DNA from: Candidatus Limnocylindrales bacterium | Lineage (GTDB): Bacteria > Chloroflexota > Limnocylindria > Limnocylindrales > CSP1-4 | Reading direction: 5' to 3' | Length of the DNA: 64,000 nucleotides | NCBI GenBank assembly: GCA_050010635.1 | Contig: JBEKKR010000004.1 | Span: 70,272 to 134,271, forward strand | Shown here: piece after piece, positions 3,734-62,393 of the stretch | Numbering within the stretch: the stretch's first letter is position 1 | Layout: the number at the start of each line of letters is the position of its first letter | Notes under the pieces: model-generated | The model's database searches: none | What the model was told of the DNA's origin: nothing | The model's input: the letters and a program-made list of their open reading frames with translations, nothing else | Program-made: the position numbers and the translations under genes

Positions 3734-3747
3734 ATCTATTCATAGAT
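3734..3747. promoter_or_regulatory. perfect 6-2-6 palindrome ATCTATTCATAGAT, candidate ArsR-type operator
   Basis: Inverted repeat ATCTAT/ATAGAT seen directly in the divergent intergenic region. It lies about 65 bp upstream of the ArsR start and the whole sulfur operon. Confidence 0.4.
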
Positions 3748-3810
3748 CACGCATAGATCGATGGGAGTCCGCCAATGCCGAACCTCACGCGTCCGCTGGA
3801 GCACTGAGCC

Positions 3811-4179
3811 ATGTTGCGCCCCGCCGACGGCATCTACGGCCTCCAGGCCTCACTCCTCAAGACACTTGCCAGCCCGCGCCGGCTCGAGATCGTCCACTAC
3901 CTGGGTGAGTCCGGCCCGGTCGAGGTGCGGAAGCTCGCCGAGCATTTCGGCTCGACTCAGCCGGCGATCTCGCAGCACCTTGCCGCCCTGCGGGGAGTGG
4001 GCATCGTCGAGGCCGTTCGAGACGGTCGTGAAGTCCGGTACCAACTGGCCGATCCGGAGATCGTCGCGGCGTGCGGCGCGATGCGCCAGGTCCTGATTCG
4101 GCGCATTGCCCGTCTCGGCGACATCGCCGCGTCGTATTCCAACCCTCAACCGGCCGACTCCGTCCCGGTCAACCGGTAG
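3811..4179 (+). CDS. ArsR/SmtB family transcriptional regulator (sHdrR/SoxR-like)
   Basis: wHTH signature LKTLASPRRLEIVHYLGESGPVEVRKLAEHFGSTQPAISQHLAALRGVGIVE. About 60% identical paralog at 16892-17278. Confidence 0.85.
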   Translation: MLRPADGIYGLQASLLKTLASPRRLEIVHYLGESGPVEVRKLAEHFGSTQPAISQHLAALRGVGIVEAVRDGREVRYQLADPEIVAACGAMRQVLIRRIARLGDIAASYSNPQPADSVPVNR

Positions 4180-4222: not shown

Positions 4223-4588
4223 GTGGCCGAGAAGCTCATGTTCATGCTCACCCACGGGCCGAACCATCCCGAACACGTGACGATCCCGTTCGTCATGGCA
4301 GTTGCCGCTCTTGCCTCGGACGTCGAGGCCGTCATCGGACTCCAGGCCGACGGCGTCGAGATCGCCGTCAAGGGCCGCGCCGAATCGGTCGCTGCCGAAG
4401 GCTTCCCTCCCCTCTCCAAGCTCATGAACGACTACAAAGAACTCGGCGGGAAGATCCTCATCTGCGGCCCGTGCGTCAAGTCACGCCAGATCGACGCCGC
4501 CACCCAGCTCGTCGAGAACGCCGAGGTCGTCGCGGCGGCCCGGTTTGTGGTCGAACTGACTTCCGCCACAAACGCCCTGAGTTACTAA
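4223..4588 (+). CDS. DsrE/DsrF-like sulfur relay family protein
   Basis: GTG start 8 nt after AAGGAG. MFMLTHGPNHPE..ILICGPCVKSR resembles the DsrE/YchN fold. It sits immediately 5' of tusA. Confidence 0.75.
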   Translation: MAEKLMFMLTHGPNHPEHVTIPFVMAVAALASDVEAVIGLQADGVEIAVKGRAESVAAEGFPPLSKLMNDYKELGGKILICGPCVKSRQIDAATQLVENAEVVAAARFVVELTSATNALSY

Positions 4589-4612: not shown

Positions 4613-4876
4613 ATGAGCGCCTTGGACGTAGCAGAACTCGGAAACCTCACCGCCGCCGAAGTCATCGACGCCCGCGGCGCTGCCTGCCCCGGCCCGCTCC
4701 TCGAGGCCAAGAAGGGCATGGGCAAGGTCGCCATCGGCGACGTCATTGAAGTCTGGTCCAGCGACCCGGTCACCAAGACCGACATGGGCGCCTGGGCCGG
4801 CAAGGTCGGGCATGAGTTCCTCGGCGTCATCGAGGCAGACGGATACGACCGCGTCTTCCTTCGCCGCGGCAAGTAG
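4613..4876 (+). CDS. tusA: TusA-like sulfur carrier protein
   Basis: 87 aa with the invariant CPxP motif (ARGAACPGPLLEAKKGM) and typical two-layer alpha/beta size. Confidence 0.85.
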   Translation: MSALDVAELGNLTAAEVIDARGAACPGPLLEAKKGMGKVAIGDVIEVWSSDPVTKTDMGAWAGKVGHEFLGVIEADGYDRVFLRRGK

Positions 4877-4966: not shown

Positions 4967-5407
4967 ATGACTGCGCTCGCGGCACCTGTTGATGAGAAGA
5001 CGGGCACAGCCGCCCCGCGAATCCTGGTCTTCTCCACCAACAACATCTCCGATCCCGGCATCGACCTAGCCGGGAGCGCCCACCTCCACTACTCACCCGG
5101 TGTGCGTGTCATCAGCATGCCGTGCACCAGCGGCATCCGCCCTTCATGGATCCTCCACGCCATCAAGCAGGGTTTCGAAGGTGTCTTCATTGCCTCCGAC
5201 GGGGACGAGTGTGCCTACCTGCCCGACTGCGCCAAGCGCGCGTCGCGGATCATCGCCGAGGCTCAGGCGCTGCTCAAGGCGGAGGGTCTCGCGCCGCAGC
5301 GCATCAAGATGGCCGCCATCTGCTCGGTCTGCGCGGAGAACTTCGCCAAGCACATGAACCAGTTCTCGGAGGCGCTGATCGCGCTCCGATCGGCTGGAGC
5401 CAACTGA
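4967..5407 (+). CDS. MvhD/FlpD-like iron-sulfur protein (methyl-viologen-reducing hydrogenase delta subunit family)
   Basis: 146 aa. RILVFSTNNISDPGIDLAG..MPCTSGI..FIASDGDECAYLPDC..CSVC matches the MvhD Cys pattern. Its stop overlaps the hdrA1 start (ATGA). Confidence 0.8.
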   Translation: MTALAAPVDEKTGTAAPRILVFSTNNISDPGIDLAGSAHLHYSPGVRVISMPCTSGIRPSWILHAIKQGFEGVFIASDGDECAYLPDCAKRASRIIAEAQALLKAEGLAPQRIKMAAICSVCAENFAKHMNQFSEALIALRSAGAN

Positions 5408-8133
5408 TGACCAGCTACGACGCCCTTGTCGTCGGCAGCGGCATCGCCGGCATGGAATCCGCGCTCAAGCTGGGCGACATGGGCTACAAGATCCTGCTCG
5501 TCGAGAAGGAGGCGAGCGTCGGCGGCCGGATGATCCTGCTCAGCAAGGTCTTCCCCACCCTCGACTGCGCCAGCTGCATCTCCACGCCGAAGATGGCAGC
5601 CTCGATCCACCACCCCAACGTGACCGCTCTGACGTACACCGAAGTCGACGACATCGCCCGCCAGGAGGGCGGCCGCTTCAAGGCCACCATCCGTCGGAAG
5701 CCGCGCTTCGTCGACGAGGCCGCCTGCACCGGATGCCAGCTATGCGAGACGGCCTGTACAGTCGCCGTCCCGGACCAGTTCAACGCCGACATGGTCGCCC
5801 GCCGGGCCGCCTACATCACGTTCCCGCAGGCCGTACCGAAGAAGGCCGTCCTCGAGCGGGCCGGCACTTCGCCCTGCACCTACACGTGTCCTGCGGGCAT
5901 CAAGGCCCACGGCTACGTCTCCCTCATTCGCAGCGGGGAATACGAGAAGGCCTTCCAGCTCGTCCTGGATGCGACGCCGCTAGTTGGGACCCTCGGCCGA
6001 GCCTGCTACGCCCCGTGCGAGGGCGAGTGCACCCGCGGCTCCCTCGAAGGCACGCTGCCGATACGGCGACTCAAGCGCTTCGCCGCCGACCAGCACTACG
6101 CCTCCGCCGATGGGCCCAATGTCGAAATTCCGCCCGCCAACGGCAGGAGGGTGGCCGTTGTCGGCTCCGGACCGGCCGGCCTGACCGCCGCCTGGCAGCT
6201 CGCCCGGCGTGGCTACGGCGTGAAGATCTTCGAAGCCGCTCCGGTTGCCGGCGGCTTCCTCAGGCTCGCCATCCCGGCCTACCGCCTCCCGGCCGAGGTC
6301 GTGGATCAGGACATCTCCAACGTGACCGCCATCGGCGTGGAAATCGCCACGAATTCGCCGGTCACGGACCTAGACGCGCTGCGGCGAGACGGCTACGACG
6401 CCGTCCTGGTCGCCACCGGAACGCCGCTTTCCACCGCGCTCAACGTCCCCGGTGAGAACCTTGATGGCGTCCTCGGCGGTCTGAAGTTCCTCCGCACCGC
6501 CAAGCTCGGCGCCCCGACGGACCTGACCGGCAAGAAGGTCGTGGTCGTGGGCGGCGGCAACGTCGCCATGGACGCGGCCCGCAGCGCCGTCCGGCTCGGC
6601 GCCGCCGAGACCACCGTCGCCTATCGCCGCGGTCGAGAAGAGATGCCGGCCCATAAGGCCGAAGTCGACGAAGCCGAACAAGATGGCGTCAGGTTCTCGT
6701 TGCAGGTAGCTCCCGTCGAGGTCGTCGGTGATGCCGCCGGCCAAGTCACCGGGCTGCGCTGCCAGCGCATGGCCCTGGGCAAGCCCGACGCCTCCGGGCG
6801 CCGCCGCCCGGAGCCGATCAGGGGCAGCGAATTCGTGATCGCCTGCGACACGGTCCTCGTGGCCATCGGCATGGCTCCCGAAGGTTCGGCCTTTGGGAGC
6901 GGCATCGCCGCCAACGCGAACGGCACGCTCGTCGCCGACAAGAACACGCTCCAGACGGCCGTCCCGCACGTATTCGCCGCCGGCGACGTGACCACGGGCG
7001 CGTCGGACATTACCCAAGCGGTCGGCCAGGGCCGCCGGGCCGCCCACATGATCGACCGATATCTGCAGGGCGAGCCGCTCACCGGGTTCGAGATGGACGG
7101 CCTCCTGCCGCTCGTCGACAAGCCGGCCGTCCTGGCCCGCCAGAAAAACTACGTCAACCACTCGCCGGCGATCGCCGCCGAACCTGCACCCGGCGGCGTT
7201 GCCGGCCTCGCCAAGCCGGACTTCGCGGAGGTGGAGGCCCCCCTGACCGAAGAGGAGGCGCGCGCCTCCGCCGGCGATTGCCTGGACTGCGGCGTCTGCT
7301 CGGAGTGCCAGGAGTGCGTCACGGTCTGTCCATCGGATGCCATCCACCTGGACATGCGCGAGCAGATCGAAGAGATCGACGTCGGCGCTGTGGTGGTCGC
7401 AACCGGCTACAAGCTGTTCACGGCCGACGCCAAGCCTGAGTACGGCTTCGGCCGCTACAAGAACGTCATCACCGGCATGCAGATGGACCGCCTGCTCGCG
7501 CCGACCAGGCCGTTCAACACGGTCCTGCGCCCGGGCGACGGCAAGGTTCCCGAGCGAATCGCTTACGTCATGTGCACGGGCTCTCGCGACGAGACCGTCG
7601 ACAACCCGCTCTGCTCGCGCTTCTGCTGCATGTACTCGATCAAGCAGAACCAGCTCGTCATGGGCGCGCTGCCGCTGGCCGAGGTCACCGTCCACTACAT
7701 GGACATCCGAGCCCCGGGCAAGCGCTACGACGAGTTCTACGAGGGCGCCAAAGCGATGGGCGCCACGTACGTCAAGGGCCGCGTCGCGAAGATCACCGAG
7801 AAGCCCGACGGCAACCTGGTCCTGCGCTACGAGGACATCGAGCACGGCGGGGCGCTCGTCGAGGCCGAGTACGACATGGTCGTGCTGGCAGTCGGCGTCC
7901 AGCCGAATCGAGACGTCGAACGCCTCTTCTCAGGCGACACGATCGAACTCAACGATTACCACTACGTGGCCGAACCGAGCGAGGACATGAACCCGGGGAC
8001 GACGAGCATACCCGGCGTCTTCGTGGCCGGAACCGCGTCCGGCGCAAAGGACATCACCGACTCGATCCTGCATGCCGGCGCCGCAGCGGCCCAAGCCGCA
8101 GCCCACCTGGAGTCAGTGAAGGTGCCGGCATGA
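5407..8133 (+). CDS. HdrA-like FAD/FeS flavoprotein with inserted GltD/NfnB-like NAD(P)H oxidoreductase module
   Basis: 909 aa. Domains in order: N-terminal FAD Rossmann (VVGSGIAGM), a ferredoxin motif CTGCQLCETAC, and an approximately 430-aa pyridine-nucleotide-disulfide-oxidoreductase module. That module has two GxGxxG sites (VAVVGSGPAGL and VVVVGGGNVAMD) and ends in AAGDVTTG, like the glutamate-synthase small subunit. A second Fd motif CLDCGVCSECQECVTVCP follows, then the HdrA signature CTGSRDETVDNPLCSRFCC. Confidence 0.85.
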   Translation: MTSYDALVVGSGIAGMESALKLGDMGYKILLVEKEASVGGRMILLSKVFPTLDCASCISTPKMAASIHHPNVTALTYTEVDDIARQEGGRFKATIRRKPRFVDEAACTGCQLCETACTVAVPDQFNADMVARRAAYITFPQAVPKKAVLERAGTSPCTYTCPAGIKAHGYVSLIRSGEYEKAFQLVLDATPLVGTLGRACYAPCEGECTRGSLEGTLPIRRLKRFAADQHYASADGPNVEIPPANGRRVAVVGSGPAGLTAAWQLARRGYGVKIFEAAPVAGGFLRLAIPAYRLPAEVVDQDISNVTAIGVEIATNSPVTDLDALRRDGYDAVLVATGTPLSTALNVPGENLDGVLGGLKFLRTAKLGAPTDLTGKKVVVVGGGNVAMDAARSAVRLGAAETTVAYRRGREEMPAHKAEVDEAEQDGVRFSLQVAPVEVVGDAAGQVTGLRCQRMALGKPDASGRRRPEPIRGSEFVIACDTVLVAIGMAPEGSAFGSGIAANANGTLVADKNTLQTAVPHVFAAGDVTTGASDITQAVGQGRRAAHMIDRYLQGEPLTGFEMDGLLPLVDKPAVLARQKNYVNHSPAIAAEPAPGGVAGLAKPDFAEVEAPLTEEEARASAGDCLDCGVCSECQECVTVCPSDAIHLDMREQIEEIDVGAVVVATGYKLFTADAKPEYGFGRYKNVITGMQMDRLLAPTRPFNTVLRPGDGKVPERIAYVMCTGSRDETVDNPLCSRFCCMYSIKQNQLVMGALPLAEVTVHYMDIRAPGKRYDEFYEGAKAMGATYVKGRVAKITEKPDGNLVLRYEDIEHGGALVEAEYDMVVLAVGVQPNRDVERLFSGDTIELNDYHYVAEPSEDMNPGTTSIPGVFVAGTASGAKDITDSILHAGAAAAQAAAHLESVKVPA

Positions 8134-9878
8134 GCCCCGCCGAAAGCCGCGACCCTCAAGCCCGCCGCATCGGGGTTTATGTCTGCCACTGCGGCGGCAA
8201 CATCTCCGACTACGTCGACGTCCAGGCCGTCGTCGACGCGGTCAAGGACGAGCAGGGCGTCGTGATCGCCAAGCACATGATGTTCGCCTGCTCCGACGCC
8301 GGACAGCAGGAGATGGAAGAGGACATCGCCGCCAACGACCTGGACGGCCTCGTCGTCGCCTCTTGCTCGCCCAAGCTCCACGTCGTCACGTTCCGCGGCG
8401 TCGCGAAGCGCTCGGGCATGAATCCCTACGAGTACAACCAGGCCAACATCCGCGAGCAGTGCTCGTGGACCCACACCGACGATCGCGACGGCGCCACGCA
8501 CAAGGCCATCGGCCTGGTCCGCGGCGTCATCGGCCGGACCCGCCTCACCGAGGCCCTGGAACCGCTCGTCGTCGAGACCACGCAGAAGGCGCTGATCATC
8601 GGCGGCGGCGTGACCGGCCTGCGAGCCGCGATCGGTATGGCGGACATCGGCCTGGGCGTCTTCCTGGTGGAGCGCGAGCCCGAGCTCGGCGGCTGGGTCG
8701 GCAAGTTCGGCCCGATGTTCCCACACGAGCGAGACGGCCGCGAGCTGATCGCCCGGATGGTCTCCGAGATCAAGAAGCGACCATCGATCAAGGTCTTCAC
8801 CGGGGCCGAGGTCGTAACCAAGGCCGGCAGCTTCGGTAACTACGAGATCGGCATCCGCGTTGCCGCCGACCCGCCGCAGACCCTCTCTGTGGAGGTCGGC
8901 TCGATCGTCGTCGCTACCGGCTTCGACGCCTACCAGCCGGCCGAAGGCGAGCTCGGGGCCGGCTTGCCGGGCGTACTGACGCTGCCCGAGTTCAAGGATC
9001 TGGTCGACGGCTCGAAGGGTCCGCTCCGCTACAACGGCCGGCCCGTTCGCAGCCTCGCGTACATCTACTGCGTGGGCAGCCGCCAGCCGGACGGCAACGA
9101 GTACTGCTCGCGCTTCTGCTGCTCCGCCACGGCTCACGTCTCGATCAAGGTCTCGGAGCGGGACCCGAAGGTTCGCCAGTACCACCTCTATCGCGACATC
9201 CGGACGTACGGCAACTTCGAGCTTCTGTACACGGAAGCCCGCAAGCAGGGCGCGATCTACGTCAAGTTCCCGGACGACGCCCCTCCCGTCGTAGCCGTCG
9301 AGGCGGGTGGCGGCCTGGCGGTGACCGTCCGCGACCTGCTCTCCGGCGACGAAGAGCTGGAGATACCGGTGGACCTGGTGGTCCAGGTCACCGGCATGAT
9401 CGCCCGTAAGAACGACGAGATGGTCGGGATGCTGAAGCTACCGCTCGGCCGCGATGGCTTCTTCAACGAGATCCACCCCAAGCTGCGGCCGGTCGAAACG
9501 ATGGTCGACGGGGTCCTGATCGCCGGCGCTTGCCAGGGGCCCAAGAGCTCGGCCGAGAGCGTGGCCTCGGGCCTGGCCGCGGTCACCCAGAGCGCGTCCG
9601 TGCTCAAGAAGGGCGTGGCGGAGCTGGATCCGCTCGTCGCCACGGTCGACCCGGACAGGTGCACCTGGTGCGGCAAATGCGAGACCGCCTGCCCCTACGG
9701 AGCGATCGAGAAGCTGTCGCTCAACGGTCGCGAGGTCGCGACGATCAGCGAGGCCGGCTGCAAAGGCTGCGGCGGCTGCGTCCCAATGTGCCCCGAAAAC
9801 GCCATCGACCTGCGCGGCTACACGGACGCCCAGATCACGGCAATGATCGACGGCCTGCTCGAGGAGGCGATCGCATGA
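8130..9878 (+). CDS. HdrA/QmoB-like FAD/FeS flavoprotein with C-terminal 2x[4Fe-4S] ferredoxin domain
   Basis: 583 aa. Cys-rich N-domain (VYVCHCGGNISDYVD), FAD site ALIIGGGVTGL, HdrA signature CVGSRQPDGNEYCSRFCC, and C-terminal CTWCGKCETACP / CKGCGGCVPMCP. ATGA overlap with hdrA1. Confidence 0.85.
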   Translation: MSPAESRDPQARRIGVYVCHCGGNISDYVDVQAVVDAVKDEQGVVIAKHMMFACSDAGQQEMEEDIAANDLDGLVVASCSPKLHVVTFRGVAKRSGMNPYEYNQANIREQCSWTHTDDRDGATHKAIGLVRGVIGRTRLTEALEPLVVETTQKALIIGGGVTGLRAAIGMADIGLGVFLVEREPELGGWVGKFGPMFPHERDGRELIARMVSEIKKRPSIKVFTGAEVVTKAGSFGNYEIGIRVAADPPQTLSVEVGSIVVATGFDAYQPAEGELGAGLPGVLTLPEFKDLVDGSKGPLRYNGRPVRSLAYIYCVGSRQPDGNEYCSRFCCSATAHVSIKVSERDPKVRQYHLYRDIRTYGNFELLYTEARKQGAIYVKFPDDAPPVVAVEAGGGLAVTVRDLLSGDEELEIPVDLVVQVTGMIARKNDEMVGMLKLPLGRDGFFNEIHPKLRPVETMVDGVLIAGACQGPKSSAESVASGLAAVTQSASVLKKGVAELDPLVATVDPDRCTWCGKCETACPYGAIEKLSLNGREVATISEAGCKGCGGCVPMCPENAIDLRGYTDAQITAMIDGLLEEAIA

Positions 9879-10138
9879 ACGCTCCCAACGTCGCGCCCGA
9901 CAGGGACCTGCGCGAGATCATCCGCGAGGAGCCGCTCATGAGAAGCCGGATCCTCGAGGTTCTCGCCGACGGTCCGCACACCGTGCCGGAGATCGCCGAG
10001 GCCCTCGGCCGCCCGACTCATGAAGCCATGTACTGGGTCATGGGCATGCGCCGGTACGGCTGGGTCCGTGAGCTCAAGGATGTGACGCCCGAGGGCTACT
10101 TCCGCTACGGGGCCGTCCAGAAGGAGACGCGGTCATGA
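9875..10138 (+). CDS. small winged-helix-like protein, translationally coupled inside the hdr/qmo-like operon
   Basis: 87 aa. GAGGAGG RBS, and ATGA overlaps on both sides. ILEVLADGPHTVPEIAEALGRPTHEAMYWVMGMRRYGWV looks like a wHTH fold. Confidence 0.5.
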   Translation: MNAPNVAPDRDLREIIREEPLMRSRILEVLADGPHTVPEIAEALGRPTHEAMYWVMGMRRYGWVRELKDVTPEGYFRYGAVQKETRS

Positions 10139-11292
10139 CCGCGCGAGTCGATCGCAACCTCTATCCCGAGCTTCAGCGCTTCGGCGCCACGGACATTTCG
10201 GCGTGCTTCAACTGCGGTGTCTGCTCCGCCATCTGCCCGCTTTCAGTGGACGGCGCCTCGTTCCCGCGCCGGATGTCCCGCTACGCCCAGCTCGGTCTTC
10301 GCGAGAAGCTGCTCGCCAGCCCGGAGCTATGGTCTTGCTACGGCTGCTCCGAATGCACGGACTCGTGCCCGACCAAGGCCGATCCGGCCTCGTTCATGGC
10401 CGCCGCACGGCGCTACGCCGTCGCCAGCTATGACCGAACCCACCTCGCCTACCTGCTGGCAACCTCGCGGCTCTTCGCAGGCTTCTTCGTCGTCGCCCTC
10501 GTCGGGCTCCTTGCTGCCTTCATGTATTCGGTCCACAAGCCGGTCGACGGCTCGACGCTCGCCTTCTTCGACTTCGTCCCCAGCGACGTCATCCACAACA
10601 TGGGCATCGTCGCCATGGCGGTCATGGGAGTGGCGGCACTGGTCGGCCTGATAGAGATGGTCAGGCGCGTGTTGCGCGGACCCAAGGCAGTAGCCGCGAA
10701 GACGACGTTCGGCAAGGTGGCCGGGGCCGCCGTCTACGCGGTGGGCACCGAGTCGCTGGCCCAGACGCGCTTCCGAAAGGATTGCGCCGACGGGGCGGCG
10801 TCCGGCGAAGCCGGCGAGGCCCGGCCCTGGTATTCGCAGCGCTGGTTCATCCACTTCGCCACCATGTGGGGGTTCCTGGGCCTGCTCGGCGCCACGATGC
10901 TCGACTACGGCCTGGAACTGCTCGGCGTCAAGGCCGTGGGCACGGCGGTGCCGATCTGGTATCCAGTGCGCCTGCTCGGCACGATCGCCGGCGCCGCGCT
11001 GATCTACGGCACGACCGTGCTGATTGTCCGGCGCCTGCGCAAGAGCGACCGCTCAAGCCTCCACTCGACGACTTCGGACTGGACTTTCCTGGCAATGCTC
11101 TGGGTCACGGGCGTAACGGGCTTCGTCCTGGAACTCGCGCTATACCTGCCGCAGGCCCCCACGTGGGGCTACCCGATGTTCCTGCTCCACGTCGGAGTGG
11201 CCATGGCCCTGGTCCTGCTGGTGCCGTTCGGCAAGTTCGCCCACGTCTTCTACCGGCCGGTTGCGCTCTTCGCCATCAGGCTGCGCGGCTGA
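10135..11292 (+). CDS. QmoC/HdrE-HdrC-like membrane protein: di-[4Fe-4S] ferredoxin domain fused to a multi-helix, probably heme-b, membrane domain
   Basis: N-terminus carries CFNCGVCSAICP and CYGCSECTDSCP (HdrC-type). Five or more TM helices follow, with conserved His (HNMG, HFATMWG, HVGVAM, HVFYRP) as in NarI/HdrE cytochrome b. Confidence 0.8.
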   Translation: MTARVDRNLYPELQRFGATDISACFNCGVCSAICPLSVDGASFPRRMSRYAQLGLREKLLASPELWSCYGCSECTDSCPTKADPASFMAAARRYAVASYDRTHLAYLLATSRLFAGFFVVALVGLLAAFMYSVHKPVDGSTLAFFDFVPSDVIHNMGIVAMAVMGVAALVGLIEMVRRVLRGPKAVAAKTTFGKVAGAAVYAVGTESLAQTRFRKDCADGAASGEAGEARPWYSQRWFIHFATMWGFLGLLGATMLDYGLELLGVKAVGTAVPIWYPVRLLGTIAGAALIYGTTVLIVRRLRKSDRSSLHSTTSDWTFLAMLWVTGVTGFVLELALYLPQAPTWGYPMFLLHVGVAMALVLLVPFGKFAHVFYRPVALFAIRLRG

Positions 11293-11394: not shown

Positions 11395-11985
11395 ATGAGT
11401 TCCAAGAAACGCCACGGCGCAGCCGGCCGTCGCTCCACGGGTGGGACCGTCGTTGCCTCCAGCCCATCGAGGCCGGCGCTCTTTGCCGATGGGCAAGCTC
11501 GACTCGTTCTGCTCGTCGCCGTCCTCGTTCTGGCCGCCGCCGTCGTGATCGGCGCCGATCTTATCTTCGGCGCGATATCGAACGGCAGCGGGAGCACCGC
11601 AGCAACCGCTACGCCGGCCGCCACCTCGAGCCAGATCGGTGTCGTCGTCCAGGGCAGAGGGGGCCACTGGACCAACGTAACGCCGGATCAGCTGGCTCAG
11701 ATGATGGCCCGCAAGGACTTCACCCTGGTCAACGTCAAGACGCCGTACATCGGCGAGATCGACGGCACGGACCTCTACATCCCCTACGACCAGCTCACGG
11801 CGCGTGCCTCGGCGCTGCCCTCGAACAAGGGCGCCCGGATCCTCGTCTACTGCCGGAGCGGCGCGGAGAGCGCTCAGGCCGCCCAGACGCTGCTGGACCT
11901 GGGATATACCAACGTCTGGAACCTGGATGGCGGGATGAACGCCTGGCAGGCGTCCGGCCGCCCGATCGTCACCAGGAACCGGTAG
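11395..11985 (+). CDS. rhodanese-domain sulfurtransferase with N-terminal membrane anchor or signal
   Basis: TM helix LVLLVAVLVLAAAVVIG, then a rhodanese domain with active-site loop CRSGAES and C-terminal LDGGMNAW. Confidence 0.8.
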   Translation: MSSKKRHGAAGRRSTGGTVVASSPSRPALFADGQARLVLLVAVLVLAAAVVIGADLIFGAISNGSGSTAATATPAATSSQIGVVVQGRGGHWTNVTPDQLAQMMARKDFTLVNVKTPYIGEIDGTDLYIPYDQLTARASALPSNKGARILVYCRSGAESAQAAQTLLDLGYTNVWNLDGGMNAWQASGRPIVTRNR

Positions 11986-15529: not shown

Positions 15530-15642
15530 GGCGCCAACGGCACGCGACCCCGGGGTGTCCTCGTGAAGACGCTCCGGGGTCGCCGTGACGGGGGTCCGGT
15601 GATTGTCCGGCGCAGGCCGACGGTGGTTGGCAGGCCGCGAAC

Positions 15643-16140
15643 CTAGATGAACATCGTGGAGTCGGCCTCGGTCGCCAGCTGCAGCATCGTCGCCGCGCCG
15701 ACCGTCTCCTCGAGGCCGTCGATGAGATCCTCGCGCCTGATGCCGAACAAGTCCGAGGTCATCTGGCACGGGTAGATCCTGACCCCGAGTTCCTGGCACA
15801 TCGCGAGCAGCTCCTTGGGCTTGGAGGCCTTGTACTTGTCGGCCAGCTGGAACATCATCCACGGCCCCATGCCCATGAAGTTCATCTTGCTCGTCTTGCG
15901 ATGGCTGATGCCCGGCCGCTGCATGAAGGACAGCATCTTCTGCATCCAGTTCTGGCCGGTGATGCGCTTGCCGTCCTTCACAAAGGCCTGCAAGGCCCAG
16001 AAGGTCACGAAGATCGAGGTCTCTATCTCCATCGCGGCGGCGGCGGAGGCGATGATCAACGATGCCCACGTCTTCTCCAGGTCGCCGCTGTAGGCGATGA
16101 TGCAGAGCTTCTTGGGCTTGCTGGCAGCCTCTGCGGTCAT
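15643..16140 (-). CDS. DsrE-family protein (COG2210-type, DsrE2/DsrE3-like)
   Basis: 165 aa. KLCIIAYSGDLEKTWASLIIASAAAAME..YPCQMTSD. Confidence 0.7.
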   Translation of the reverse strand: MTAEAASKPKKLCIIAYSGDLEKTWASLIIASAAAAMEIETSIFVTFWALQAFVKDGKRITGQNWMQKMLSFMQRPGISHRKTSKMNFMGMGPWMMFQLADKYKASKPKELLAMCQELGVRIYPCQMTSDLFGIRREDLIDGLEETVGAATMLQLATEADSTMFI

Positions 16141-16191
16141 TTCGGATCCTTTCGTGTTGAGGGCGAACCAGTTGGGCGCTCGCCGGGGTGG

Positions 16192-16419
16192 CTACTTGTG
16201 GCGGAGCACGAAGCGGAACTTGCCGTTGGCGGAGTCCTGCTCCACGAGGGCGTTGCCGGTAGAGGCGGCCCACGCCGCGAAGTCCTTGACCGACCCCGGG
16301 TCCGTAGCCAGGACCTCCATCAGATCGCCTGCCTCGAGAGTCCTCATGCCCAGCGTCGCCTTGAGGATCGGCCCCGGGCAGGAGAGACCGCTGGCGTCCA
16401 CTTTGAGCTTGATATCCAT
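16192..16419 (-). CDS. tusA: TusA-like sulfur carrier protein (second copy)
   Basis: MDIKLKVDASGLSCPGPILKA.. with the CPxP motif. Internal ATG chosen; 76 aa. Confidence 0.8.
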   Translation of the reverse strand: MDIKLKVDASGLSCPGPILKATLGMRTLEAGDLMEVLATDPGSVKDFAAWAASTGNALVEQDSANGKFRFVLRHK

Positions 16420-16468
16420 CTGCTGCCCTTTCGCTGCTGGTTTGGCCGGGTAGGCCGGTTCCTTCCGA

Positions 16469-16882
16469 CTAGATGAAGAGGATCTGGCCCTCACCGGCGT
16501 TGACATAGAAAGCGGCCACTCCCTCTACGCCGTCGACGATGGGGTCGAGGTCCGAATGCTTGAGCCCGAGGAGCTCCATTGAGGCCGAACAGGCCTGGAT
16601 GTCGACCTCGCCCAATTCCTTGGCCATCCGGAGTGTCTCTGTCCAGTGCGCCTGACCTGCTTTCGCGGCCGCGTCGAGGGCGGCCTTGCCGGCCGGACCG
16701 GCCTCGGGCACAAGACCGTGATCGGCCGTGATCCGATCGGCTCGGAAGGACTCAAGGGCCCAATACTGCAGAAGGATCTTGACCGGCCGACCGAGCGCGG
16801 CGGCACCCGCGGTCAGGACCGAGGCAGATTGAAGCTTGTCGTCGGTCCCCGAGAAGAGGACTATCGAGATGGTTTCGTCCAT
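16469..16882 (-). CDS. DsrE-family protein (COG2210-type, DsrE3-like)
   Basis: 137 aa. ISIVLFSGTDDKLQSASVLTAGAAALG..DIQACSASMELLGL. Together with 16192-16419 and 15643-16140 this forms a DsrE-TusA-DsrE triplet. Confidence 0.7.
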   Translation of the reverse strand: MDETISIVLFSGTDDKLQSASVLTAGAAALGRPVKILLQYWALESFRADRITADHGLVPEAGPAGKAALDAAAKAGQAHWTETLRMAKELGEVDIQACSASMELLGLKHSDLDPIVDGVEGVAAFYVNAGEGQILFI

Positions 16883-16891
16883 GCGAGGGCC

Positions 16892-17278
16892 TCAGCTAGT
16901 TCTGTTGTTAGGCGCGGTCGAGACGGTGGATGTGCCCGATGTCCGCTCAGCGACGAGCTCGTCTGAAGTACGTGCGGCGGCGGCGGAGATACGGGCCAGC
17001 CTACGGGCGAGGACGCCGCGCATCATCTCGCAGGCGACGATGATCTCCGGATCGCTGAGCCGGTAGCGAACCTCGCGGCCGTCCCGATCGGCCTCGACCA
17101 CACCGCCGGCCCGCATTACGGCCAGGTGCTGCGAGACGTTTGGCTGGCTGATGCCCATCTCCTCGGCCAGGCGCGAGACCTCGCGAGGGCCGTCGGCGAG
17201 CAGGTGGATGATCTCGAGGCGGCGCACGTTAGCGATCGTCTTGAGAACTTCGACCTGGAGCTTGTAGACCTCATCCAT
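16892..17278 (-). CDS. ArsR/SmtB family transcriptional regulator (paralog of 3811-4179)
   Basis: MDEVYKLQVEVLKTIANVRRLEIIHLLADGPREVSRLAEEMGISQPNVSQHLAVMRAGGVVEADRDGREVRYRL. Confidence 0.8.
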   Translation of the reverse strand: MDEVYKLQVEVLKTIANVRRLEIIHLLADGPREVSRLAEEMGISQPNVSQHLAVMRAGGVVEADRDGREVRYRLSDPEIIVACEMMRGVLARRLARISAAAARTSDELVAERTSGTSTVSTAPNNRTS

Positions 17279-17296
17279 GGGATGCAGTCTTGGATA

Positions 17297-17314
17297 TATG
17301 CGCAGGTGCGCATA
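17297..17314. promoter_or_regulatory. perfect 8-2-8 palindrome TATGCGCAGGTGCGCATA, candidate operator of the second ArsR/DsrE-TusA module
   Basis: Seen directly, 19 nt upstream of the ArsR ATG at 17278 on the minus strand, in the intergenic region before hypE. Confidence 0.45.
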
Positions 17315-17446
17315 GGTACAGGTGTCCCGACGCTGAGGGCCAAATGGCACGTGAGGCTAAGAAAGTAAGGCGACAGGCGGCGTCGGCCTAATATAAGTGG
17401 GGCGGTTACCATTTTCGGCCGGTCACGGCTCCTGCCGTGGCCGCCG

Positions 17447-18622
17447 CTAGCAGATGCGGGGCAGCTGCTCCCCGACCAGCATGTCCACGATCCGCTGCGA
17501 GCCGACAATCGTGCGGACGGTGACCATCGACGGGTGGTCCGCCACGACGCGGCCGATCTCGACCGCCTCCGCCCCTTCCGGGAGAACCCGCATCGCCGCC
17601 AGCACGGCCTCGACCGCGGCGGCCGGCACGATCGCGACGAGCTTGCCTTCGTTGGCCACGTGGAGCGGATCCAACCCAAGCATCTCGCAGGCGGCCCGCA
17701 CGGGGCCGGGGATCGGAATCGTCTCCTCGCGCAGGTCCACGCCCACCTGAGATGCCCCGGCGATCTCGTTGAGCGCCGAGGCCAGGCCGCCGCGTGTCGG
17801 GTCGCGGAGGACGTGGACGTCCGGGCAGGCGGCGACGATCGCGGCCACCAGCGCGTTGAGCGGCTGCGTGTCCGAGGCGATCTCGACCTCGAAACCCAGG
17901 CCCTCGCGGACGCTCATGATGGCGATGCCGTGCAGTCCGATCGGGCCGGAGAGGATGACCGCGTCGCCGGGGGCCGCCCGATCGGCGCCGACCGAGACGC
18001 CGGCGGCCACCAGCCCGATGCCCGCGGTGTTGACGAAGAGCCCATCCGCCGCTCCCCGACCGACGACCTTCGTGTCGCCGGTCACGATTCGAACGCCGGC
18101 TCGGGCCGCCGCCCGCGCGACCGACTCGGTGATCTTCCGCAGCTCGTCGATCAGCAGGCCTTCCTCGATGACGTAGGCGAGCGACAGCGCCAGCGGCTGG
18201 GCGCCCATCATGGCCAGGTCGTTGACGGTGCCGAAGACGGCCAGCTCGCCGATGTCGCCGCCGGGGAACTCGAGCGGGCTGACCACGAACGAGTCGGTGG
18301 TGAAGGCGAGCCGCGAACCCGCGACATCCACGACGGCGGCATCGTTCAGCGGCCCCTGGGCCGCACCGCCGGCCGCAGCCAGCGCCGGGCCGATAACCTC
18401 GCGCATGAGCGCCGCGGAGAGCTGCCCGCCGGAGCCGTGGCCCAGGAGGACTCGTGCGCGTTCGGGTATCGAGGCCGGGCAGGCTAGATTGGCCGGGTCC
18501 GGCGCCGCCGAACCAGCCGGGCCGGGCGCGGCCGCCAGCTCGGTCTCGCTCGCCGCGCGCCCGCCCAGGTTCGTCTCGTCCGGGAAGCCGCCGAAGATGT
18601 CGGCCGCCCGCTTCTCCGTCAT
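17447..18622 (-). CDS. hypE: hydrogenase maturation protein HypE (carbamoyl dehydratase)
   Basis: PurM-like fold. N-terminal [15 protein letters not shown] and invariant C-terminal PRIC. About 50-aa N-terminal extension. Confidence 0.85.
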
Positions 18623-19767
18623 CTCGGCGCCTCGCCGAGCGGCCGCGACAACTCGTAGAGCGGGAACGCCGTCGGCGCCGCGAGCCCCCGCCCCGCCGCG
18701 TGATAGGCGGAGCAGACCCCCTCGGCGCTGACCATCGGCGCCCCCAGCGGCTTCTGGGGGTTGCAGAGCACGCCGTAAGCCGTGCAGTCGAGCGGGGTCT
18801 TCGTGCCCTGCAGGATCTGGCCGGCGATGCAGGCCGGGTGCTCCTGGGTGTGGATGTCGCCGACCTCGAACCGCTTCTCGGCGTCGAACTCCTCGAACTC
18901 GGGCCGCAGGTGGTAGCCCGACGCCGGGATGGTGCCGATGCCGCGCCAGGTCCGCTCGCCCACCTCGAAGACGCGGAAGACCGTCTCCTGCGCCTCGCGA
19001 TTACCCTCGCGCTTCACGGCTCGCGCGTACTGGTTCTCGACGACCGCCCGCCCTTCCTCGAGCTGGCGAATCGCCATCAGAATCCCCTCGAGCAGGTCCA
19101 GCGGCTCGAACCCGGTCACCACGATCGGGACGTGGTAGCGCTCCGCGATCGGCTCGTATTCGGTCCAGCCCATGACCGCGCAGACGTGGCCCGCGGCCAG
19201 GAAGGCCTGGACCTGGTTCGTCGGCGACTCCAGGATCGCGGTCATCGCGGGCGGAACCAGGACGTGGCTGACGAGAACGGAGAAGTTCTCGAGCCCGAGC
19301 CGGGCGGCCTGCCGGACCGCCATGGCGTTTGCCGGTGCCGTCGTCTCGAACCCGATCGCGAAGAAGACGACCTGCCGATCCGGGTTCGCGGCCGCAATTC
19401 GGACCGCATCCAAAGGCGAGTACACGATCCTTACGTCAGCGCCGCGCGCCTTCAGCGCCAGCAGATCAGTCGTCGATCCCGGGACGCGGAGCATGTCGCC
19501 GTAGCTGGTGAAGATGACGTCCGGCCGGGCGGCGATCGCAAGCGCCTTGTCGATCTGCTCGAGCGGGGTCACGCACACGGGGCAACCGGGGCCGTGGATC
19601 ATCCGCACGCCCTTCGGCAGCGCCTCGTCGATACCCTGCTTGACGAGTGTGTGGGTCTGCCCGCCGCACACCTCCATCAGCGACCACGGCCGAGTGGTGA
19701 TGCGGTGGATCTCGTCGACCAGCTTGCGGGCGATCTCGGAGTCGCGGTACTCGTCGACGTACTTCAT
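18619..19767 (-). CDS. hypD: hydrogenase maturation protein HypD
   Basis: [17 protein letters not shown] and the C-terminal CxxH motifs of HypD. 382 aa. Confidence 0.9.
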
Positions 19768-20075
19768 ACGCGCGCCCCCGGCGCGGGCGGCGGCCCTGAA
19801 GCGGCAGGCGGCGCGGCCTCGGCCATCGCGCCCAGCTCCATGGCCATGCCTTCCTCGTCGATCATCCGTAGCAGCTCGAGCGTCTTGAGAGCCTCCTCCT
19901 CGTCGAGCTGGCTGATCGCAAAACCGACGTGGACGATGACGTAGTCGCCGATGCCGACCTCCGGCAGGTAGGCCAGGCAGGCTTCCTTGCGCACCCCGCC
20001 GAAGTCGACGCGAGCCATGCGCAGCGCTCCGTCATCGCGGATCTCCACGACCTTGCCCGGGATGCCGAGGCACAT
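19764..20075 (-). CDS. hypC: hydrogenase assembly chaperone HypC/HupF
   Basis: Starts [12 protein letters not shown] (invariant Cys2). About 104 aa with an Ala/Pro-rich tail. Internal ATG chosen. Confidence 0.8.
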
Positions 20076-20080
20076 TCGAA

Positions 20081-22549
20081 CTACTCCTTCGCGGGGGCCG
20101 CGGCCAGCCGCGCGGCTGCCACCGCCGCCTGACCGTAGCTGATCCCGCCGTCGTTCGCCGGGACCTTCTGATTGGTGTAGACCTCGAACCCGTCGCCGCC
20201 AAGGCGCCGGACGAGGGTAGTGGCAAGCCACTGATTCTGGAAGACGCCCCCGGAGAGTGCGACGGTCCGGAGACCGGTCTCCGACCGGACGGCGGTGCAG
20301 AACTCGCGGGTGACGGCGGCGATCGTCTCCTGGAACCGCGCGGCGAGAGTCTCCGGCGCGGCTCCCTCGGCACGACTTTCGAGGAGCGCCCGAATGGTGG
20401 GCCGGGGATCGTATACGAGGAGCGACCTGCGGTCGCTTTGGCCGTCGCGTCGAACCATCCTATACGGCAGCGGCGCGACGGTTCCCTCCTCCGCCAGCAG
20501 CTCCAACTCGATCGCGGCCTGCGCCTCGTACTCCGCCACATCGCGGATGCCGAGGAGGCTGGCCGCGGCATCGAATAGCCGGCCGGCCGACGAGGCGACG
20601 GGCGCGTTGAGGCTGCGCGCCAGCTGGACGCGGACGACTTCGACCTCGCGGGGGTCGAGCCGGTCGAGGAAGGCGTGCGTCAGCTCGGGATCGATCCAGC
20701 CGGCCACCGAACCTTCGGGCTCGAACGCCTCGCCCGCCAGCAGGTACCCGAGGGCCATGCGGTACGGCTTCTTGACCGCCAGCGCCCCGCCCGGCATCGG
20801 CGCACGGCCGAAGCGGCCGACGCGCCGGTAGCCCGCCAGCGTGGCTATGAGCACCTCGCCGCCCCAAAACGTGCCGTCGTCGCCCATGCCCAGGCCGTCG
20901 AAAGCGACGCCGATGAACTCGGCCGCGGCGCCCGAGCCGGCCCCGATGCCCGCCTCGGCCGCGACCGACGCCACGTGGGCGTGGTGATGCTGGACGGCGA
21001 TTCGTCGGCTCTCCGGGAAGTGGCTCACGGCGTACTGCGTCGACAGATAGGCCGGATGCAGGTCGTGGGCGACATATTCCGGCTCCAGGTCCAGCAGCCG
21101 CTTCAGGTGAGCCAGGTTCGTCTCGAAGGCCCGGTGCGTCAGCAGGTCTTCGAGGTCGCCGGTATGCGGCGCGACGTGGGCACGCGAGCCGCGCGCGAGC
21201 GTGAACGTGTGCTTGAGCTCCGCGCCTACCGCCAGAAGAGGGGCGGGCGTGGCCACGGGCAGGTCGAGCGGCTCCGGGGCATAGCCGCGGCCGCGCCGGA
21301 TCAGGCTCTCGCGTCCATCGACGACCCGCGTGACCGAGTCGTCGTAGCGGGCCCGGATCTCGCGGTCGTGCTGCAGGAACGAGTCGGCGATGCCCGCCAG
21401 CCGCTCGACAGCTTCGGCATCGTCCGTGGCCAGCGGCTCGTCGGAGAGGTTGCCGCTCGTGAGCACGATCGGCCGGCCCAGCCCCTCCAGCAGCAGGTGG
21501 TGGAGTGGCGTGTACGGCAGGAAGAGACCGACCCGGCGGTTGAGGGCGGCCGCGCGGGCCGGGTCCGCGGCCGCGTCAGCCGCCGCGACGACTCCGTCGG
21601 CCAGCGGCGAGGCGCCGCTCGCCGGCCCCTCGCGGCGCCGCTCGACGAGCACGATCGGCCGCGCCGGCGAGGTCAGGAGCTCCTCCTCCTCGCGCGAGAT
21701 CTCGGCCTGGGCGCGGGCGGCGACCATGTCCCGGACCATGACCGCGAACGGCTTGGCCCAGCGGTGCTTGCGGTCGCGGAGCCGCGCGACCGCGGCCGGG
21801 TCGGTGGCGTCGCAGGCGAAGTGGTAGCCGCCCAGCCCCTTCACGGCCACGATTCGCCCGGCCCGAAGGTCCGCCAGGGCCGCGGCAAGGGCCGCTTCCC
21901 GATGCGCCGCCGGGGCAGCGTCGCCGGGCCGCCGGTACGAGAGCTGCGGCCCGCAGTCCGGGCACGCGACCGGCTCGGCGTGGAAGCGGCGGTTCGCCGG
22001 GTCGCGGTACTCGGCTCCGCACGCGGCGCAGAGCGGAAACTCCCGCATAGACGTCCGGGCGCGGTCGTAGGGCAGGTCGTCGATGATCGTGGCCCGCGGC
22101 CCGCAATTCGTGCAATTGGTGAACGGGTAGCGGTAGCGCCGGTCGGCCGGGTCGAACAGCTCGCCCAGGCAGTCGTCGCAAGTGGCGATGTCGGGAGGGA
22201 AGAGCCGCTCGGCGGACGCGACGGCCTCGCTCTCGTCGATCGCGAAGCCGGCTCCCGGCTCGATCGTTCGGCCGCTCGGGCGGACCTCAACCGCCTCCAC
22301 ACGGGCTCGCGGAGGCGCCTCGCTCGCCAGCCGCCGAGCGAAGGCTTCGACTGCCTCCGCCGGTCCCGCAACCTCGATCTCGACCTGGCCGGCACGGTTG
22401 ACGACCCTGCCGTCGAGCCCGAGCTCGGCCGCCAGCCGCCATACGAAGGGCCGGAAGCCAACCCCCTGGACGACGCCGCGGACCTCGATGGCGCGCGCGA
22501 CGCGGCCGGCCGAAGCGGCTTCCCCTGGCGTCAGTCCTGCGTCGCGCAT
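20081..22549 (-). CDS. hypF: carbamoyltransferase HypF
   Basis: 822 aa. Acylphosphatase domain (VRGVVQGVGFRPFV), two CxxC-x18-CxxC zinc fingers, a YrdC-like domain, and a Kae1-like domain. Confidence 0.9.
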   Translation of the reverse strand: MRDAGLTPGEAASAGRVARAIEVRGVVQGVGFRPFVWRLAAELGLDGRVVNRAGQVEIEVAGPAEAVEAFARRLASEAPPRARVEAVEVRPSGRTIEPGAGFAIDESEAVASAERLFPPDIATCDDCLGELFDPADRRYRYPFTNCTNCGPRATIIDDLPYDRARTSMREFPLCAACGAEYRDPANRRFHAEPVACPDCGPQLSYRRPGDAAPAAHREAALAAALADLRAGRIVAVKGLGGYHFACDATDPAAVARLRDRKHRWAKPFAVMVRDMVAARAQAEISREEEELLTSPARPIVLVERRREGPASGASPLADGVVAAADAAADPARAAALNRRVGLFLPYTPLHHLLLEGLGRPIVLTSGNLSDEPLATDDAEAVERLAGIADSFLQHDREIRARYDDSVTRVVDGRESLIRRGRGYAPEPLDLPVATPAPLLAVGAELKHTFTLARGSRAHVAPHTGDLEDLLTHRAFETNLAHLKRLLDLEPEYVAHDLHPAYLSTQYAVSHFPESRRIAVQHHHAHVASVAAEAGIGAGSGAAAEFIGVAFDGLGMGDDGTFWGGEVLIATLAGYRRVGRFGRAPMPGGALAVKKPYRMALGYLLAGEAFEPEGSVAGWIDPELTHAFLDRLDPREVEVVRVQLARSLNAPVASSAGRLFDAAASLLGIRDVAEYEAQAAIELELLAEEGTVAPLPYRMVRRDGQSDRRSLLVYDPRPTIRALLESRAEGAAPETLAARFQETIAAVTREFCTAVRSETGLRTVALSGGVFQNQWLATTLVRRLGGDGFEVYTNQKVPANDGGISYGQAAVAAARLAAAPAKE

Positions 22550-29757: not shown

Positions 29758-30153
29758 CTACCTCAACCACAACCGTACGAGGTCGCTGGTCGAGATGATG
29801 CCGATCGGGGTGGCCGCATCGTCGGTGACGACGAGGCGGTGGACTCGGCGCTCTTCCATCAACCTGGCCGCCTCTTCGAGGCGGGCCGTGGCGGAGATGG
29901 TGAGAGCCGGCTTGGTCATCACCTGGCCGACCGCGAGGCCGGGCCAGCTGGTGGCCATGTTCTGGCTTGCTCGAACCCGAACGAGGTCGGTCTGACTCAG
30001 GACGCCCACGAGGAGCCCGTCCGTGTCGACAACGGGAAGACCGGTGATCTTCTTGCTGTCGAGGATCCCGGCGGCCTCCGCGAGGGAGGCCGACTCGACG
30101 ATCGAGATCGGGTTGGGGGTCATGATCTCGCCGACCGTTCGAGATTGGTTCAT
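29758..30153 (-). CDS. CBS-domain pair protein
   Basis: Two CBS motifs (IMTPNPISIV..ITGLPVVDTDGLLVGVLSQTDL and VMTKPALTIS..HRLVVTDD..IGIISTSDL). Stop overlaps the start of the upstream PFOR gene. Confidence 0.75.
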   Translation of the reverse strand: MNQSRTVGEIMTPNPISIVESASLAEAAGILDSKKITGLPVVDTDGLLVGVLSQTDLVRVRASQNMATSWPGLAVGQVMTKPALTISATARLEEAARLMEERRVHRLVVTDDAATPIGIISTSDLVRLWLR

Positions 30154-62084: not shown

Positions 62085-62393
62085 GATTCGCTCCCTCGAT
62101 GTCGGACTGATGTTGGGCGCACGTGCCCCACCTCAGTACATGTGGCAGAGGGGCTGGCCGGCGGCTTGGCGCCGACCCAAGGCATACCCTCGCTCGCACC
62201 GCACGGATCGGTCTCGCCAATGGCTCGGCGCGGTCCCAACGGCCGAAGCGCGGGCCACGATTAGAAACCTTCCGTGTGGCGGCAGCGTCATCTTGGGCGG
62301 AGCGGCTGCCTAGTGCCGAAGGTCGTCGACCGGCAGCGTCCCGGCGTCACCGGCCGGGCAATGGTCGCGCCGCTGAGATCGAAGTGATACCGC

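Follow-up and report, generated by a model that had tools for sequence, protein, structure and literature searches.

Within a 64,000-nucleotide stretch of DNA from a Candidatus Limnocylindrales bacterium (the whole stretch is called the window hereafter; G+C content, 69%), the minus strand at 15643-17314 carries a gene for an ArsR-family regulator, arsR2, followed by dsrE-a, tusA and dsrE-b. We consider, with moderate confidence, that the locus as a whole is best explained as an autoregulated sulfane-sulfur carrier operon, in which ArsR2 would repress its own transcription unit from a conserved palindrome just upstream of its start codon. The components and the logic of such a system (an ArsR repressor with TusA/DsrE carriers) are already known, and the module is a real but fairly ordinary sulfur-handling operon; what is new is a defined predicted operator, a one-cysteine regulator pattern with a differently placed ancestral cysteine pair, and the conserved occurrence of the module in Limnocylindria.

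The arsR2 operon and its upstream palindrome

The four open reading frames (ORFs) are close-set and have the codon bias of real genes; an independent gene caller, applied to metagenome contigs of identical sequence, returned the same four genes. An earlier note on this DNA had described a minus-strand arsR paralogue ahead of a dsrE-tusA-dsrE triplet, and both the positions of all four ORFs and their domain assignments bear this out. The gaps between arsR2, dsrE-a, tusA and dsrE-b are 9, 49 and 51 nt, dsrE-a beginning 9 nt past the arsR2 stop. The features of the module are as follows:

17297..17314: perfect 8-2-8 palindrome TATGCGCAGGTGCGCATA, minus-strand reading TATGCGCA-CC-TGCGCATA; predicted ArsR2 operator
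16892..17278, minus strand: arsR2, 128 aa; ArsR/SmtB-family winged-helix repressor (HTH_5 E=2e-14; HTH_20 also matched; NCBIfam ArsR/SmtB subfamily 81.6 bits, cutoff 55)
16469..16882, minus strand: dsrE-a, 137 aa; DsrE2-like sulfur carrier (PF13686 49.5 bits, cutoff 25); candidate active-site Cys98
16192..16419, minus strand: tusA, 75 aa; TusA-family sulfur carrier (PF01206 E=7e-21); Cys15 in the CPGP motif (LSCPGP)
15643..16140, minus strand: dsrE-b, 165 aa; DsrE2/YrkE-like (PF13686 E=1.2e-42, 146 bits, cutoff 25, full length); candidate active-site Cys125
17324..17350, minus strand: conserved upstream block GTGCCATTyGGCCC-N8-10-GGGAC
15544..15583: GC-rich inverted repeat, 19-nt arms, 2-nt loop, 84% complementary (repeat search)

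A scan with DsrE-b, one genome per species, gave 80 loci at 61-95% identity. All except one come from metagenome-assembled genomes (MAGs) of Chloroflexota/"Candidatus Limnocylindria" (79/80); the remaining locus (L076, DATCBF010000320.1) is labelled Solirubrobacterales, and given that its operon has the typical six-gene form described below, it is probably a misbinned contig. The order arsR2-dsrE-a-tusA-dsrE-b is conserved in about 76 of the 80 loci.

The perfect palindrome that the earlier note had reported ahead of the regulator ATG is present: 18 nt lie between the two, the last base of the palindrome being at −19, and TATGCGCAGGTGCGCATA has no second occurrence in the window when up to 3 mismatches are allowed. 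Among the orthologous Limnocylindria loci with an arsR2 start (77), about 70 carry the motif yATGCGCA-NN-TGCGCATr, with 0-2 mismatches, 16-18 nt ahead of the projected arsR2 ATG. A profile and alignment of 76 upstream regions showed that information content peaks at both half-sites and dips at the spacer; the central dinucleotide is unconstrained (CC, AC, CG, TC, GA, CA, AA), and the flanks diverge among relatives. The fixed position, the conserved half-sites, the free spacer and the variable flanks together identify a genuine cis-element. The pattern reads as the footprint of a dimeric winged-helix protein site at the protein's own promoter, and the conserved palindrome is very probably the ArsR2 operator. 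No further copies of the motif were found within ±6 kb in the relatives, save for one start-codon misprojection; a wider regulon was rejected, since neither the window nor the ±6 kb around the relatives' loci holds extra operator copies.

The operator is bracketed or overlapped by a weak −35/−10-like pair, TGTACC-N16-TATATC, recognized by eye (TATGAC in relatives). Reading of the sequence found no Shine-Dalgarno element ahead of the arsR2 ATG, and a very short leader is therefore possible. The block at 17324..17350, found by the same profile and alignment in nearer relatives, may act as a promoter element or as a further binding site, or may fold into a small hairpin; GGCCC could pair with GGGaC. 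At the other end of the operon, the inverted repeat at 15544..15583 lies between the convergent dsrE-b and DUF1634/TauE pair and is probably a bidirectional terminator hairpin; a terminator scan returned a single terminator-like site, at chance rate, and a search of Rfam matched no RNA family to the module or its surroundings.

Covariation of the recognition helix with the operator (residue 44 Ser/Thr vs. the G/T half-site variant) was considered and dropped because of counter-examples in L015, L024 and L037. In one relative (L032, ~4700-4815), a 19-nt unit holding the arsR2 start (GAGGCGTAGTGGCATGGAC) occurs in several tandem copies, which displace the projected start codon from the operator at 4628; the repeat is either an assembly artefact or a real duplication.

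Cysteines of the regulators and carriers

ArsR2 has the ArsR/SmtB winged-helix fold, as confirmed by its HTH matches and by an AlphaFold2 monomer model (pLDDT 88.6; α1 2-15, α2 18-27, α3 34-41, α4 45-57, wing 61-74, α5 78-115). Foldseek matched the model to M. smegmatis SmtB, Rv0081, HlyU, CzrA and SqrR, with SqrR and BigR at TM scores of 0.58-0.61; the best sequence match in the PDB is Rv0081 (6JMI; E=6.6e-15, ~40% identity). Its paralogue in the window is ArsR1 (3811..4179, plus strand), the regulator of the first operon; the paralogy proposed in the earlier note stands, with a measured identity of 56% over 111 aa in place of about 60%.

Neither regulator contains the CVC box of metal sensors (α3 ELCV(C/G)D), as the earlier note had already seen: the equivalent site reads DGPREVSRL in ArsR2 and SGPVEVRKL in ArsR1. 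The α5 metal site (DxHx10Hx2(E/H)) is absent as well, D76, E78, V89 and R92 of ArsR2 replacing D104, H106, H117 and E120 of SmtB. As both sets of ligands are missing, ArsR2 does not belong to any known type of metal sensor.

ArsR2 likewise lacks the cysteine pair of sHdrR, Cys50 in α2 and Cys116 at the C-terminal end of α5 (PMC12423496), a comparison that the earlier note had proposed. The α2 site is R32/E33 (Val at position 32 in ArsR1), the equivalent of SmtB C121 is R93, and the NCBIfam BigR equivalog model scores 53.8 bits against a cutoff of 155. Judged by its residues, ArsR2 cannot operate the two-cysteine tetrasulfide switch of BigR/SqrR/SoxR/sHdrR. Many ArsR regulators encoded beside shdr genes are without the two cysteines and must work differently (PMC12423496, 2025).

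The sole cysteine of ArsR2, Cys83, stands at the start of α5, 10 residues earlier than the α5 cysteine of the two-cysteine repressors. It is invariant in all 79 Limnocylindria sequences, ArsR1 included, in the midst of varying neighbours (V/C/A/T/R at −2; E/S/G/N/D at +1); ArsR1 is also a single-cysteine protein, which keeps the α5 cysteine and has Leu at 12 and Val at 32. Alignment places Cys83 at SmtB position 111, midway between α5-site ligands from opposite protomers, and hence probably close to the two-fold axis of the dimer. Of the 79 sequences, only 28 have Cys at position 32; the idea that Cys32 tracks the presence of the SQR-like gene introduced below was tried, and no strict relation emerged.

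An exhaustive family search gave 13,716 hits and 138 alignable representatives. Cys83 is kept in 110 of the latter, down to ~33% identity, within the motif (D/N)P(K/E)IxxAC(D/E)LMRxVL, and 59 of these 110 have a second cysteine at position 12 in α1, where both window regulators have Leu. The profile of this two-cysteine (α1/α5) group has at least 5,417 members, with named members from Nitrospirota, Thermodesulfobacteriota, Anaerolineales and Ca. Sulfobium. By this pattern, ArsR2 and ArsR1 are one-cysteine derivatives of an uncharacterised α1/α5-Cys family, the α1 partner having been lost. A tblastn search of plasmids with a distant family member gave only matches without the α5 segment. One two-cysteine member (P0324), in a Chloroflexi MAG (L170, 1-2401), lies 2.6-5 kb from CCG-domain (HdrB-like), GCV_H (LbpA-like) and SQR/FCSD-like (flavocytochrome c sulfide dehydrogenase-like) genes; no other distant relative in the sample lies close to a genuine sHdr-type gene set.

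Each of the three carriers has an invariant cysteine among its orthologues: C98 of DsrE-a (78/78), C15 of TusA (81/81) and C125 of DsrE-b (81/81). DsrE-a matches 2QS7 (SSO1126, DsrE2B) over its full length (E=1.3e-20) and does not match 3MC3; DsrE-b matches 3PNX (E=1.7e-20) and 2QS7 (E=2.8e-19), and 3MC3, the DsrE3A structure, only at E=1.8e-12. The "ACS" of DsrE-a and the "PCQ" of DsrE-b align with the "ACS" of 2QS7, the equivalent of M. cuprina DsrE2B Cys99, and neither protein has the Cys-X7-Cys of DsrE3A, as each contains a single conserved cysteine. The two are 26% identical to each other and score 81.7 bits (DsrE-b) and 26.3 bits (DsrE-a) against the NCBIfam equivalog "sulfur carrier protein DsrE2" (NF047629, cutoff 210); on these scores they are PF13686 family members, not equivalogs of the curated DsrE2. 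The module TusA is 40% identical to the TusA of the first operon. By family assignment, then, the module is DsrE2-like/TusA/DsrE2-like and not the dsrE3-tusA pair to which the earlier note had likened it; the DsrE3-like protein of the window, matched to 3MC3, belongs to the first operon.

Synteny and the first operon

In 44 of the 80 loci, mainly the more distant ones plus L033, the operon takes a six-gene form, arsR-dsrE-a-tusA-dsrE-b-tusA'-flavoprotein. The flavoprotein has matches in human SQOR (E=2e-36) as well as in flavocytochrome c sulfide dehydrogenases and bacterial sulfide:quinone oxidoreductases (SQRs); its best NCBIfam model is type III SQR (339 bits, cutoff 525), and the YKCPPAP cysteine region is present. 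An adjoining SQR-like gene, the genetic mark of DsrE4 (Liu et al. 2014), is thus found in these 44 relatives and not in the window. None of the 44 loci has an Hdr/Qmo operon within 6 kb. With its TusA' and SQR-like enzyme, the six-gene form points to the handling of sulfide-derived sulfane sulfur; the ancestral job of the module was probably uptake and distribution, or disposal, of sulfane sulfur from sulfide, and the sub-lineage of the window has lost the SQR-like enzyme.

In the window and its nearer relatives, the module is flanked by hypD-hypE on one side and, on the other, by DUF1634/TauE, a rhodanese and, 4-6 kb off, the first operon. The sulfur-gene neighbourhood of the window thus comprises two rhodaneses, TauE/DUF1634 and a DsrE3-TusA-MvhD-HdrA-QmoC-like operon, and hypFCDE genes occupy 17447-22549. 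Many relatives (L012-L017, L023, L028, L030, L032, L040) have a third ArsR paralogue, ~40% identical to ArsR2, between TauE and a 111-aa rhodanese; its gene runs divergently to TauE/DUF1634 and precedes that of the rhodanese. In the window, this interval measures just 110 nt and contains no third arsR. The first operon (operon 1) and its upstream element are composed as follows:

3734..3760: element upstream of arsR1, ATCTATTCATA-GAT-CACGCATAGAT; consensus cTATTCATA-N3-4-cAcGCATAg
3811-4179, plus strand: ArsR1, regulator of operon 1
4223-4588: DsrE3-like protein; best solved relative 3MC3 (E=3e-4); CxxC rather than Cx7C
4613-4876: TusA
4967-5407, plus strand: FlpD/MvhD-like protein
5407-8133, plus strand: HdrA2-like protein, 908 aa, with GltD-type NAD(P)H insert
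8130-9878, plus strand: HdrA2-like protein, 582 aa
9875-10138, plus strand: 87-aa protein, no family match
10135-11292, plus strand: QmoC-like Fe-S/NarI membrane protein (194 bits, cutoff 300)
11395-11985: rhodanese

The architecture is unusual in that the HdrA2-like protein is split over two genes, with the GltD-type module inside the first. The earlier note had called the neighbouring complex Hdr-like and had likened the module to pairs that feed sHdr. The genes do not support an sHdr complex: MvhD, a split HdrA2-like protein and a QmoC-like subunit are present, and HdrB/C CCG and GCV_H (LbpA) domains were found neither in operon 1 nor in the subset of other window ORFs that was scanned. The linkage to lipoamide dehydrogenase that marks DsrE3 of sHdr systems is missing from the neighbourhood of operon 1, the operon-1 DsrE has no detectable similarity to DsrE-b, and the subset of ORFs scanned elsewhere in the window contained no sox, dsr or shdr genes; the ORFs sampled there include ETF, CoA-transferase, PFOR/OFOR and a DevS/R-like two-component system. 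By its gene composition the operon 1 complex is HdrA/Qmo-like, could run in either direction, and is not sHdr. A sulfur-reducing or bifurcating complex linked to H2 or NAD(P)H would likewise be consistent with the architecture at 4967-11292 taken together with hypFCDE.

Scanning metagenomes with ArsR1 recovered 80 loci, and 48 distinct upstream regions from these were compared. The perfect palindrome that the earlier note had assigned to the first operon, the 14-mer ATCTATTCATAGAT, does exist at 3734-3747, yet it is not the conserved unit: its right half falls in a variable centre (ATAGAC, ATATAC, ATACAA, ATAACT), and the element conserved in the 48 regions reads in full (A/G)(T/C)CTATTCATA-N3-4-(C)A(C/T)GCATAG(A/C)T. 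Set against the ArsR2 site TATGCGCA-N2-TGCGCATA, the arsR1 element TATTCATA-N3-CACGCATA has the outer TAT(G/T)C...GCATA frame in common; the inner bases differ, and the spacing differs by one base. The two predicted operators therefore appear related but distinct, and insulation between them is plausible. The module is thus a second, separately organised unit with an operator-like palindrome of its own, as the earlier note had it, and both modules and both elements are conserved in relatives.

A short upstream ORF (3776-3808, plus strand; MPNLTRPLEH*) ends with its TGA 3 nt ahead of the arsR1 ATG. Of 70 distinct upstream regions (L088-L159), 46 contain a similar ORF of 9-45 codons that stops 0-3 nt short of arsR1, often with MPSPS... 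or MSSPS... at its start; these ORFs could encode a leader peptide or serve translational coupling.

Proposed mechanism, its alternatives and other features of the window

From the gene content, family assignments, synteny, operator conservation and cysteine patterns, we infer how ArsR2 would act, to what signal it would respond and in which direction sulfur would flow. An ArsR2 dimer would bind yATGCGCA-NN-TGCGCATr over the core promoter and thereby shut off its own operon; sulfane sulfur or thiol oxidation at Cys83 would release it, the assignment of Cys83 as the sensor residue being tentative. The three small cytoplasmic carriers would hand sulfane sulfur, in the form of persulfide or thiosulfonate, from one protein to the next. 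In the relatives the donor would be SQR; in the window it would be rhodaneses or another protein. The acceptor could be the HdrA/Qmo-like complex, or the sulfur could be disposed of by export; in the window, the two rhodaneses, TauE/DUF1634 and the first operon are each candidates for either role.

Known systems offer partial parallels. ArsR2 has the winged-helix fold and the lack of metal sites in common with BigR, SqrR, YgaV and the sHdrR/SoxR repressors of Hyphomicrobium denitrificans; the latter two are, as here, a paralogous repressor pair in one sulfur region beside TusA/DsrE genes, and are presumed to repress at intergenic repeats, as we propose for ArsR2. The dsrE3A-dsrE2B-tusA cluster of Metallosphaera cuprina and Saccharolobus solfataricus (SSO1125-SSO1126; 3MC3, 2QS7) likewise places DsrE and TusA genes beside an Hdr-like set, and its DsrE2B structure is matched by both DsrE-a and DsrE-b with the active-site cysteine aligned. 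This module differs from that cluster in having two DsrE2-type proteins, no DsrE3 and its own ArsR, and in that the neighbouring complex is HdrA/Qmo-like, without HdrB/C, LbpA or lipoamide dehydrogenase.

The cst operon of Staphylococcus aureus (CstR; CstA, a rhodanese-TusA-DsrE fusion; CstB; SQR) and the yrk genes of Bacillus (YrkE, YrkF, YrkI) combine persulfide-handling TusA-like and DsrE-like carriers with SQR, a nearby TauE-family exporter and a dedicated thiol-based repressor. The six-gene form of our operon, with TusA' and the SQR-like enzyme, resembles the cst logic; the differences are that the regulator here belongs to the ArsR and not the CsoR family, that the carriers are separate small proteins, that a persulfide dioxygenase was not found, and that the SQR-like gene is absent from the window.

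Several observations weigh against the proposed mechanism. No promoter passed the thresholds of a σ70 consensus scan. Perfect 8-arm palindromes with 0-4 nt spacers number 18 in the window, compared to 15.8 ± 4.6 in Markov-1 simulations; raw palindrome statistics are at chance level, and the significance of the site thus derives from its position and conservation, not from its perfection. Neither tusA' nor the SQR-like gene occurs anywhere in the 64-kb window, and the only biochemically tested DsrE2B, that of M. cuprina, was inert to all six sulfur compounds (PMC4175335). The gene neighbourhoods of the α1/α5-Cys family are heterogeneous and often non-sulfur (FtsEX/M23, LonC, YgaP-like TM; four loci looked up), so that a constant link of this family to sulfur was rejected as a general rule. 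The residue of Rv0081 aligned with Cys83 is Leu, and Cys83 could therefore be a packing residue. Finally, hypD/hypE lie directly upstream of arsR2 in most loci of both sub-lineages, several six-gene loci included (L041, L044, L046, L049, L050, L070, L072, L074), so that the operon could be connected with hydrogen metabolism and not with sulfide.

The last two points also favour an explanation in which ArsR2 does not sense sulfur at all: it would be a repressor like Rv0081 of Mycobacterium tuberculosis, ligand-independent or governed in another way, for example by phosphorylation, abundance or hypoxia, and would tie the operon to hydrogen/anaerobic metabolism, with Cys83 serving a structural role at the α5 dimer interface. 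Rv0081, the closest solved sequence relative, has no α3/α5 metal site, is encoded by the first gene of its operon and represses its own synthesis at an upstream inverted repeat, as proposed for ArsR2; both regulators have a hydrogen-metabolism neighbourhood (the formate hydrogenlyase operon at Rv0081, hyp genes at ArsR2), the window holds a DevS/DevR-like two-component system and PFOR/OFOR genes, and family members with the same cysteine occur in non-sulfur contexts. However, Rv0081 contains no cysteine and targets formate hydrogenlyase, whereas ArsR2 has an invariant one and the genes it would regulate all encode thiol-based sulfur carriers. Substitutions to L/I/V/A would be expected at a mere packing position, yet Cys83 is kept in every Limnocylindria sequence despite its varying neighbours and in ~80% of representatives down to 33% identity, and more than half of the wider family pairs it with the α1 cysteine, an arrangement that resembles a thiol switch. 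We regard the non-sensing repressor as unlikely, if with a real chance. The opposite extension is quite doubtful in our view: ArsR2, ArsR1 and their Limnocylindria relatives would form a one-cysteine type of ArsR-family sulfur/redox sensor, derived from the α1-Cys/α5-Cys family (5,400 members or more, from anaerobic phyla active in sulfur cycling) with a thiol switch placed unlike that of BigR/SqrR; Cys83 would be modified via an intersubunit Cys83-S(n)-Cys83' bridge or by transpersulfidation from the regulated TusA/DsrE, and the paralogues would be insulated by the one-base change in spacing.

The earlier note had suggested that the two paralogous ArsR/operator pairs gate separate inputs, for example thiosulfate vs. 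polysulfide, into one Hdr-like sulfur-oxidising complex. There are indeed two regulator/element pairs and two carrier sets, each conserved; the module and the HdrA/QmoC-like operon lie within ~4-6 kb of each other in nearer relatives; and the inner half-site bases and the spacing (8-2-8 vs. 8-3/4-8) are not the same in the two predicted operators, which is compatible with insulation. This model is nevertheless unlikely, since the complex has a QmoC-like membrane subunit and neither HdrB/C CCG domains nor LbpA, the DsrE proteins of the module are DsrE2-type, the relatives that couple the module to a type III SQR-like gene (44/80) have no Hdr/Qmo operon nearby, H2-linked reduction would account no less well for MvhD and the flanking hyp genes, and the common outer frame of the operators leaves cross-talk possible. 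It is also conceivable, and in our judgement very improbable, that the palindrome serves as a conserved promoter element or is bound by another factor (possibly ArsR1 or the third ArsR) and that ArsR2 acts elsewhere. The right arm does overlap the −10-like TATATC/TATGAC hexamer, the ArsR1 element has the same outer frame, and the third ArsR is encoded nearby in many relatives; but the motif accompanies arsR2 in essentially every locus, including those without the third ArsR and those far from arsR1, and occurs nowhere else within ±6 kb. Moreover, a dyad with a free 2-nt centre is the signature of a dimeric winged helix-turn-helix site and not of −35/−10 hexamers, and ArsR/SmtB repressors as a rule regulate themselves through an inverted repeat lying upstream.

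Sulfane-sulfur-sensing ArsR-type repressors have so far been defined by one cysteine pair. The arsR2 locus provides a clean, conserved test case, with an 18-bp predicted operator, a single displaced invariant cysteine, and a paralogue with a related but distinct element; if the regulator is an ordinary non-sensing repressor, the finding becomes routine annotation. Limnocylindria, an abundant uncultured class of soil and peat, carries a conserved DsrE2-TusA operon whose partner is either a type III SQR-like enzyme or an HdrA/Qmo-like complex, a finding relevant to cryptic sulfur cycling in peat.

Elsewhere in the window, a c-di-GMP-II (GAG type) riboswitch aptamer was detected at 62197-62281 on the minus strand (60.9 bits, gathering threshold 40; E=1e-9), upstream of the ORF at 61212-62084. 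The minus strand at 30150-32486 encodes a 778-aa protein resembling pyruvate/2-oxoacid:ferredoxin oxidoreductase alpha/gamma, with an apparent N-terminal receiver-like segment of ~130 aa in its translation; a small CBS-pair-like ORF (29758-30153) adjoins its gene.

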